The notes: generated by a model from the letters alone, not told the origin. 64,000 nucleotides of DNA from an uncultured Clostridia bacterium (GCA_934149305.1 CAKPEF010000008.1:1885-65884), one strand, 5' to 3'. Shown: positions 61,510 through 62,231, counted from the first letter of the stretch. Translations and numbers: made by a program.

Positions 61510-61547
61510 CAAGCATTATGCCGATTTCATTTCAAGTCTTAGCTTAT
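61510..61547. repeat. 38-bp direct repeat, copy A (duplicate of the spo0A 3' end)
   Basis: CAAGCATTATGCCGATTTCATTTCAAGTCTTAGCTTAT. It differs by 1 nt from 62194..62231. Confidence 0.9.
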
Positions 61548-61625
61548 TTTGAGTTTTGATCGTTGTAAACAGCTATATACCTGTGAACTAATAAAAATTT
61601 GCAAAAAAATATCAATACCGAAGTA

Positions 61626-61653
61626 TTGACTTTTTATGTTACTATAGTATAAT
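61626..61653 (+). promoter_or_regulatory. near-consensus promoter of a short + strand RNA
   Basis: TTGACT (61626..61631), 16 nt, TATAAT (61648..61653). Confidence 0.55.
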
Positions 61654-61659
61654 TTAATT

Positions 61660-61747
61660 AAAGATGAGGTTTTGGTCACAATGTGACTTGCCCAAGTTAT
61701 AGTAAAAAATCACTCAACCGTAGCCAATGGATAGAGTGATTTTTTTA
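61660..61747 (+). ncRNA. candidate small RNA (antitoxin-like), convergent with the small toxin-like ORF
   Basis: Runs from the promoter above to the hairpin AATCACTC-18 nt-GAGTGATT plus T6 (61708..61746). The hairpin is also a terminator on the minus strand. No RBS-supported ORF. Confidence 0.4.
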
Positions 61748-61749
61748 TG

Positions 61750-61836
61750 TTATTTCTTCTTATTGATTAGTATCTTTAAGAAGGATGCTATCAATAGAAC
61801 TTCAATTGCAAATAATATGTAATCATTTTCTACCAT
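61750..61836 (-). CDS. 28-aa hydrophobic peptide with a Lys tail (type I toxin-like)
   Basis: GGGAGGTG RBS 8 nt upstream of the ATG. MVENDYILFAIEVLLIASFLKILINKKK. Not in the ORF track because it is too short. Confidence 0.45.
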   Translation of the reverse strand: MVENDYILFAIEVLLIASFLKILINKKK

Positions 61837-61911
61837 TGGCATCACCTCCCTCTTCATTCGTAAAAACAAAAAGGGCAAATCACATCATATCCGAACAACC
61901 TCATCATTAGT

Positions 61912-61940
61912 AGTGTACAACATTTGTTCATCATTGTCAA
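61912..61940 (-). promoter_or_regulatory. promoter of the toxin-like ORF
   Basis: Minus strand: TTGACA (61935..61940), 17 nt, TACACT (61912..61917). Confidence 0.45.
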
Positions 61941-62193
61941 CAATAGTTGTATTGCGTTATACATTTTTCTTTTTGTATTTCTAACAAAAAAACTTCTCCC
62001 CTTTACTTAAAATTTGTTTTTAACTTATAAAACAAAATTCTTGAATAAATTGGAAAAGTTTTTTATTTTCCTACTCAATAAATCATAAAAGTTTATAGGT
62101 TTTGGCTTTTTATATTTATTGGCTTCACTCTGGATTTTTATATGTATTTTTATAAACTTTATAGGTTTATTAAATCTTGTAATTGTTCTCACA

Positions 62194-62231
62194 CAAGCAT
62201 TATGCTGATTTCATTTCAAGTCTTAGCTTAT
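62194..62231. repeat. 38-bp direct repeat, copy B (the authentic spo0A 3' end: last 10 codons plus 6 nt)
   Basis: CAAGCATTATGCTGATTTCATTTCAAGTCTTAGCTTAT. Confidence 0.9.

Follow-up and report, generated by a model that had tools for sequence, protein, structure and literature searches.

The gene for Spo0A, the sporulation master regulator, is present in a 64,000-nucleotide stretch of DNA from an uncultured gut member of the Clostridia (GCA_934149305.1, CAKPEF010000008.1:1885-65884; hereafter, the window), and is followed by a 646-bp islet bracketed by two copies of a 38-bp sequence. These copies are very probably the attL and attR attachment sites of a decayed island, which would have been inserted by a member of an integrase family that targets the 3' end of spo0A. 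The original prediction had proposed a footprint of site-specific integration at this end, reduced to an integrase-less remnant, and this proposal gains support from integrase islands at the same place in other Clostridia, from distal orphan copies of the spo0A end, and from conserved motifs in one arm of the islet. In the homologous islands at this place the integrase is intact (locus L116), split (Ruminiclostridium josui) or degraded (locus L097). The nearest species representatives to the organism have Spo0A proteins that are 84% identical to its own.

In the window, spo0A occupies positions 62200-63006 on the minus strand, and its reading frame is complete, with 268 aa and the Pfam domains Response_reg and Spo0A_C. 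The attL-type copy of the repeat (62194-62231, minus strand) is the functional end of this gene and comprises 6 nt past the stop, the stop codon itself (62200-62202), nine sense codons encoding KLRLEMKSA (62203-62229) and 2 nt of an Asp codon. The attR-type copy (61510-61547, minus strand), whose start lies 684 nt from that of the first, is an orphan spo0A 3' end that is contiguous with native downstream DNA, namely the promoter region of a gene for a 166-aa protein, as it is in L097, L117 and L094. Repeat finding and a DNA search of the window gave the sequence as CAAGCATTATGC(C/T)GATTTCATTTCAAGTCTTAGCTTAT, with 37 of 38 positions identical. The sole mismatch, TCA versus TCG, is synonymous (Ser), and both the duplication around the islet and its single silent difference, as first described, are real. 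A third copy is not present in the window at 3 or fewer mismatches, and 100 shuffles gave no match to the repeat. In addition, its boundary is abrupt, with identity falling from 97% to background within a base or two, and the 70 nt upstream of the orphan, where the rest of a longer copy that had been cut down might be expected, resemble spo0A at background level only.

The same arrangement is found elsewhere in the species. An exact look-up of the Spo0A protein, which is identical throughout, returned 23 contigs, with 10 same-species places shown. One of these (L002) contains an identical 3.2-kb stretch and 8 further places were flagged with mostly the same neighbouring genes. The arrangement does not stem from misassembly.

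A larger version of the islet is present in L097. Here, the left junction is common with the window and consists of the spo0A end followed by TGCTTGTGTGA. The right junction is also common to the two, at 90% nucleotide identity, and includes the promoter of a toxin-like gene within a toxin-antitoxin (TA)-like module, a 70-nt spacer, the 38-bp orphan (identical at 36 of 38 positions to the spo0A end of L097 itself), a 169-aa gene and the Bax1-I gene. Between these common junctions there are 3.85 kb in L097 versus 240 nt in the window. L097 carries a frame-shifted, N-terminal fragment of a tyrosine recombinase, which starts approximately 145 nt after the spo0A stop. A larger element that combines a 38-bp copy of this kind with an integrase, as envisaged in the original prediction, is represented by L097, in which the integrase is degraded. 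The place of the integrase and cargo of L097 is taken in the window by an AT-rich spacer (61942-62075, minus strand), which holds a 35-nt imperfect inverted repeat (61987-62064) and a sequence like a ribosome-binding site (RBS), GGGGAGAAGTTTTTTT. This sequence resembles integrase RBS regions elsewhere, a likeness that is suggestive only.

Three proteins are encoded by the cargo of L097 (650-3977). One is a 182-aa serine recombinase of the invertase/resolvase type; the others, a multi-pass membrane protein of 323 aa and a protein of 593 aa, gave no hit in Pfam, NCBIfam or PADLOC. A defence-like function is possible but unsupported.

The recombinase fragment of L097 matches an open reading frame (ORF) of L049, a distant relative with a Spo0A of 52% identity, in which the ORF begins 160 nt past the spo0A stop. 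A search with this ORF returned 41 clusters, all of 70-182 aa, and six of these were looked up for their genomic context. Each of the six lies 150-213 nt downstream of spo0A and on the same strand, these being P0009 (L099-101), P0030 from R. josui (L102/103), P0026 (L104-106), P0035 from Clostridium novyi A (L110), P0031 from Fervidicella metallireducens (L111) and P0019 (L113-115). When L049 and L097 are included, the N-terminal homologues that were located are found at 143-213 nt after the spo0A stop, on the same strand, in 8 of 8 cases. With one catalytic half and one full-length protein added to these eight, the figure is 10 of 10 located family members within the same distance of spo0A. 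In R. josui, the integrase is split into ORFs of 159 and 164 aa, which correspond to the N- and C-terminal halves of XerD/XerA-type recombinases. Of the 441 relatives given by an exhaustive search, the best 150 include about 16 of full length (at least 300 aa; approximately 322-339 aa), the others among them being truncated. One full-length integrase of 324 aa is found in L116, 150 nt after the spo0A stop, on a contig whose start lies only 33 nt ahead of that stop, as would result if assembly had broken at a repeat roughly as long as that of the window.

ORFs that contain the integrase core-binding domain only, with lengths of 105-182 aa, are also seen directly after spo0A (L099 8001-8531, L111 969-1490 and L113 9001-9441), and they recur in this position in diverse Clostridia (L099-L116). 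Decay, truncation at contig ends or possibly domestication may account for these short ORFs, and under the broader proposal given below the many conserved N-terminal stubs may be domesticated rather than dead.

The part of the islet next to spo0A appears to be the integrase-proximal arm of such an island. This putative arm remnant (62076-62166, minus strand), defined by motif counting and pattern search, spans 34-124 nt after the spo0A stop and contains four direct NCCTATAAA-type motifs, also written in short form as CCTATAAA, together with an inverted-repeat block. The motifs lie at 62158-66, 62137-45, 62115-23 and 62092-100 with a spacing of 21-23 bp, and four are observed where 0.41 would be expected (P about 0.001). 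Their offsets from the spo0A stop are 34/55/77/100 in the window and 35/56/87/110 in L049 and, as judged by these offsets, the phasing of the two arrays is the same. The short direct repeats that had been suggested as arm-type sites are also present, being placed by repeat finding at 62088-62102 and 62154-62168, and they turn out to belong to this phased array, which is conserved ahead of the integrase gene in distant species, with its distance from the spo0A stop unchanged. Phased short repeats beside an integrase gene are typical of arm-type integrase sites or of sites for a directionality factor, and the motifs of the window are putative binding sites for an integrase or a regulator.

Further support came from the block, CCTATAAACTTTTATGATTTATTG (62076-62099), which lies 101 nt after the spo0A stop. 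A pattern for it, [GC]C[AT]AT[AG]AACT-N5-7-TTTAT.G, was derived from five integrase-bearing loci alone. This pattern has one match in the window and none in 300 shuffles, and across 1.53 Mb of fetched loci it occurs solely at 96-137 nt after a spo0A stop. In other Clostridia, the block is located between spo0A and the gene for a Xer-like tyrosine integrase.

Orphan spo0A ends are found at the far side of other islands. R. josui has approximately 8 kb enclosed by a direct repeat of the spo0A end that is 134 nt long and perfect, and in L104-106 an orphan of approximately 165 nt, approximately 80% identical, closes a 2.7-kb island. In a sister species (L093-L096 and L117), an orphan of approximately 190 nt, approximately 88% identical to the functional end and called as a 73-aa Spo0A_C ORF, precedes a gene of the 166-aa type; in L117 it closes a 5.8-kb island. 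On this 60-kb contig the order is spo0A, a ribbon-helix-helix gene, a Wzy_C gene, an SLH surface-protein gene, the orphan, the 166-aa gene and Bax1-I. Orphans of every length (38, 134, approximately 165 and approximately 190 nt) include the last 38 nt or so.

The window, L093-L096 and L117 agree in the DNA that follows the orphan stop, which consists of TAATGCTTG and then the 166-aa gene's promoter region. The native order is therefore taken to be spo0A, the 166-aa gene and the Bax1-I gene, which makes the second copy of the window the native spo0A end, now displaced. The 166-aa gene (60867-61367, minus strand) encodes a membrane protein with two N-terminal helices that is without a family assignment and gave no match in Pfam, NCBIfam or PADLOC. 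Related clusters number only eight, and every homologue that was examined for context is placed between Bax1-I and either spo0A or its orphan. The gene is missing from about half of the same-species contigs.

Same-species alleles fall into types A, B and C. In type A, to which the window and L002 belong (with the 8 further flagged places already mentioned), the islet is followed by the 38-bp copy, the 166-aa gene and the Bax1-I gene. In type B (L001, L003-L007 and L010), the same islet is followed by approximately 55 nt of different sequence and then by the Bax1-I gene. The islet is thus present with or without the bracketing repeat. Allele comparison places the segment of type A that these 55 nt replace, and which holds the orphan copy and the 166-aa gene, at 60809-61617 (minus strand); A and B are related by replacement and not by clean excision. 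In type C (L009), spo0A ends in TAG and is followed by unrelated DNA that starts with a 58-aa ribbon-helix-helix gene. The type B spacer, which lies between the TA-like module and the Bax1-I terminator (L001, approximately 11405-11425), holds TTTTGCAAGTGTGAGATAAC. This resembles the attL junction TAATGCTTGTGTGAGAACAA (window 62181-62200) at 14 of 20 positions, with an exact 8-mer, and may be a vestige of another junction or a chance likeness.

Ribbon-helix-helix genes of this kind are also found in islands that lack an integrase and lie directly after spo0A (L117 3888-9465, L014 10859-16446, L013 10859-12126 and L009 4404-4856). Each of them opens with the 58-aa gene, which is 98-100% identical across three lineages, and their cargo is either a Wzy_C-like membrane protein with an SLH surface protein of approximately 1190 aa or a TM2-domain protein.

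The functional end of spo0A itself appears to have a history that differs from that of the remaining gene. The last 215 nt or so of spo0A are 96-100% identical to those of a sister species, with 56-90% identity over the remaining gene; the ends compared were 62200-62415 in the window, 10580-10800 in L014 and 3615-3830 in L117. Between L009 and L011/L014, the last 215 nt or so and the ribbon-helix-helix gene are 98-100% identical and the rest of spo0A is 56-88% identical, and the same jump is seen when the spo0A end of the window is compared with that of L117. Because identity jumps in this way, the functional end appears to have been recently imported or converted. On these sequence comparisons, such an import would fit islands that carry their own copy of the spo0A end, combined with homologous exchange between conserved flanks. 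Exchange of this kind probably accounts for the A, B and C alleles and for deletion derivatives such as L054.

The far end of the islet is occupied by the TA-like module (approximately 61590-61941). Its toxin-like ORF, MPMVENDYILFAIEVLLIASFLKILINKKK (61750-61842, minus strand), encodes a hydrophobic, Lys-tailed peptide, with 30 aa if the first ATG is used or, as first reported, 28 aa if the second is. The ORF has a GGGAGG RBS and a promoter of its own (61940-61912, minus strand), which consists of TTGACA, a 17-nt spacer and TACACT, and matches consensus at 10 of 12 positions. On the plus strand, a promoter at 61626-61653 with 11 of 12 matches precedes a predicted small RNA of approximately 90 nt (approximately 61660-61748), and the two together (61626-61748), placed by promoter scan and folding, form a candidate antitoxin. 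These promoters are the two best in the scanned region, and the convergent, near-consensus pair described earlier is accordingly present. A bidirectional terminator is present as well, in the form of a hairpin (61704-61746) that folds on both strands (z of -3.5 and -3.9) and is common to both predicted convergent transcripts. The predicted small RNA has a fold z of -3.9 and overlaps the 3' end of the toxin mRNA by approximately 50 nt. In addition, the Shine-Dalgarno sequence of the toxin-like ORF is predicted to be sequestered in a stem of the 5' untranslated region, where it would pair with an upstream CCCUUUUU stretch. The predicted toxin mRNA (61873-61905, minus strand) and the small RNA (61663-61693, plus strand) have similar 33-nt starts, identical at 26 of 33 positions, which form an inverted repeat in the DNA and are not complementary as RNAs.

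Conservation of the module is high. Nucleotide identity is 88-99% in the sister species (L013, L014 and L054), in L017, whose Spo0A is 70% identical, and in L097; Spo0A itself differs by 16-30% across these lineages. The changes fall mainly in the promoter spacer and the terminator loop. Across nine distinct sequences, the ORF is retained with several synonymous changes and three conservative replacements, and the hexamers of the toxin promoter are conserved while its spacer is variable. The 30-aa peptide has no match in Pfam, NCBIfam or PADLOC, and Rfam gave none for the islet either, whether at E of 1 or less over 6 kb or at the gathering threshold over the entire window. From these predicted features, the ORF looks like a candidate type I toxin, and the architecture of the module resembles, by analogy, that of 3'-overlapping type I systems.

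The observations can be joined in the following model. A small island encoding a Xer-like tyrosine integrase, as its family does, would have integrated by a Campbell-type event into the 3' end of spo0A, leaving attL and attR. As the island would carry its own spo0A end, the gene would stay intact and the displaced native end would become the orphan. The attP-type junction would then have been ...CGATCAAAACTCAAA + 38 bp + TGTGAGAACAATTAC... and the attB-type junction ...GATAGCAGATAAGC...TAATGCTTG + ATGCGTGTTGCG.... In the lineage of the window, the integrase and cargo would later have been deleted, so that two parts survive: the integrase-proximal arm with its motif array and the far-end module with its convergent promoters. 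The TA-like module plausibly favoured keeping of the remnant, a rationale offered because type I modules are known to help maintain mobile elements of C. difficile. Deletions, together with homologous exchange that uses the conserved flanks, would then have reshuffled the alleles of the species and its relatives further.

A different account invokes homologous recombination alone, with accessory cassettes between spo0A and Bax1-I being swapped via conserved flanks and the spo0A end being duplicated by an illegitimate or single-crossover (Campbell-like) event with a circularised fragment, without a site-specific recombinase. In its favor, species that are approximately 80% identical in other genes have nearly the same last 215 nt or so of spo0A, TA-like module and Bax1-I gene, several islands are without an integrase, orphan lengths differ, and alleles A and B are not related by clean excision. 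As the sole process it is nevertheless unlikely: it leaves unexplained why one integrase family sits beside the spo0A stop in every located case and why the motif block is kept in the window at the same distance from that stop, and 38 bp is short for a RecA-dependent single crossover. Homologous exchange very likely acts in addition to integration, giving the shuffling of alleles. Tandem duplication or slippage of spo0A, with divergence of the DNA in between, is the outcome that was named at the outset as refuting integration, and the longer, diverged second copy of L093-96 and L117, with its 73-aa Spo0A_C ORF, points that way. It is nonetheless highly improbable, as the DNA between the copies is not derived from spo0A but is foreign (TA, integrase arm and Wzy/SLH cargo), these foreign modules recur at high identity, differently combined, in other species, and the edge of the repeat in the window is sharp. 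The islet could also be a miniature element that still moves, excised and inserted in trans, via its two 38-bp sites, by a family integrase encoded elsewhere in the genome, in which case the junction CTCAAA-38 bp-TGTGAGAAC would be expected. Both att-type copies are near intact, the arm motifs are kept and the TA-like module could stabilise such an element. This too is very doubtful: among the 23 same-species contigs there is no islet-free allele, readable downstream DNA being the islet or a different island, and the islet is found nowhere else, its right arm is motif-poor and the window encodes no family integrase. For the last reason, the suggestion that the islet is cis-mobilisable is also without support.

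Several results weigh against a decayed, integrase-made island as well. The islet (61548-62193) contains short ORFs only, and neither an ORF survey of these 646 bp nor a tblastn search with the integrase family, the latter across the entire window, found a recombinase of this kind, in agreement with the earlier statement that no recombinase gene is present. The right arm of the islet has at most one motif. Empty-site alleles, in which spo0A would be joined directly to the 166-aa gene, had been named as something to look for in related strains; none was seen among the 10 same-species places shown (23 contigs), whose alleles differ by other insertions and deletions, and no excised circular form or circular junction was seen. 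The islet as the unit of strain polymorphism was rejected, the segment that varies being the 0.8-kb stretch (60809-61617) with the orphan copy and the 166-aa gene. Since orphan length varies, a single conserved crossover site is not demonstrated, and since L117 (ribbon-helix-helix, Wzy and SLH genes) and L013 (ribbon-helix-helix and TM2 genes) are without an integrase, homologous recombination may have made or moved some islands. As most family integrases are shortened, an ancient, vertically inherited remnant could account for part of the pattern. Finally, all the evidence for a TA system is predictive.

A broader proposal is that small islands with Xer-like integrases form an undescribed, clade-wide family in Clostridia and have the 3' end of spo0A as their dedicated attachment site. 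Such islands would import their own spo0A coding end, homogenise that end across species and make the locus downstream of spo0A a hotspot for accessory genes (surface proteins, TA modules and possibly defence genes). This is put forward tentatively, at somewhat under even odds. If true, elements that target spo0A and supply the last codons of its DNA-binding domain would link horizontal transfer in gut and environmental Clostridia directly with the sporulation master switch, and would explain Spo0A_C fragments annotated on mobile elements. The compact attB/integrase pair might also find use in genetically difficult Clostridia as a tool for integration. The window would be a clear example of the decay of such an island to a stub that bears a TA-like module.

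Searches outside bacterial contigs were also made. In a phage collection, 14 'Bacteriophage sp.' records match the spo0A 3' end and were considered as candidate attP sites. The three that were inspected (MT835504.1, MT835718.1 and MT835737.1; L107-L109; human faecal) look like pieces of bacterial chromosome and not like attP sites, with whole spo0A genes and neighbours of the recN/spoIVB type; in one such record the neighbours of spo0A are NAD kinase, ArgR and RecN-like genes, with one more ORF upstream. Viral contigs gave no match for the att sequence, a TA-specific 19-mer or the full-length integrase, and a metagenome scan for the att sequence found two contigs only, L011 among them. Elsewhere in the window, an S10-Clostridia ribosomal-protein leader (Rfam RF03136, 45.5 bits) is present at 37598-37680 on the minus strand, approximately 25 kb from spo0A, so that the window spans part of a ribosomal protein gene cluster. 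No tRNA genes are found in these 64 kb.

Tyrosine-integrase islands and prophages that insert into the 3' ends of tRNA, tmRNA or protein genes, such as P4-like elements and many genomic islands, carry a replacement end in attP. The islands described here are like these in that the repeats are the end of the target gene, the gene is intact, the integrase lies beside the junction in related islands, short motifs are arrayed in the arm and decay to a remnant is seen. They differ in that the target is spo0A, and in having a small, Xer-like integrase (approximately 325 aa) and islands of 0.65-8 kb without phage or conjugation genes, the copy in the window being integrase-less. The kind of feature is therefore well known; the target and the family appear to be undescribed, as no description of spo0A as an attachment site was found in the searchable literature.

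Mobile elements associated with sporulation genes have precedents in the intervening elements of endospore formers, which include skin in sigK, SPbeta in spsM, vfbin, gin, and yin in yabG (PMC10747680, PMC5025042). The likeness is that mobile elements are tied to a sporulation gene. Skin-type elements, in contrast, split their gene, must be excised and mostly use serine recombinases with a directionality factor, whereas the spo0A frame is complete here and does not require excision. In addition, the known elements split late sporulation genes, from which a targeting of spo0A would differ. Type I TA modules on prophages and mobile elements of C. difficile help to maintain these elements (PMC7699646). 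The module of the islet is like type I modules in its short, hydrophobic, basic-tailed peptide, in the predicted sequestration of the Shine-Dalgarno sequence, in the predicted convergent small RNA with a common terminator and in its location on a probable mobile remnant. Convergent RNAs that overlap at their 3' ends are known from txpA/RatA, bsrG/SR4 and par/Fst of Bacillus and Enterococcus. The module of the islet differs in that it has no sequence or covariance-model match to any described family and in that its two predicted RNAs have similar 33-nt 5' domains instead of complementary 5' repeats. Finally, Spo0A_C (Pfam PF08769) is among the sporulation functions that are enriched on mobile elements of gut Firmicutes (PMC6907783). 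Fragments of Spo0A_C on mobile elements are common to that study and this one, whereas a mechanism involving an attachment site is not described there; spo0A copies linked to att sites would produce exactly this signal of enrichment.
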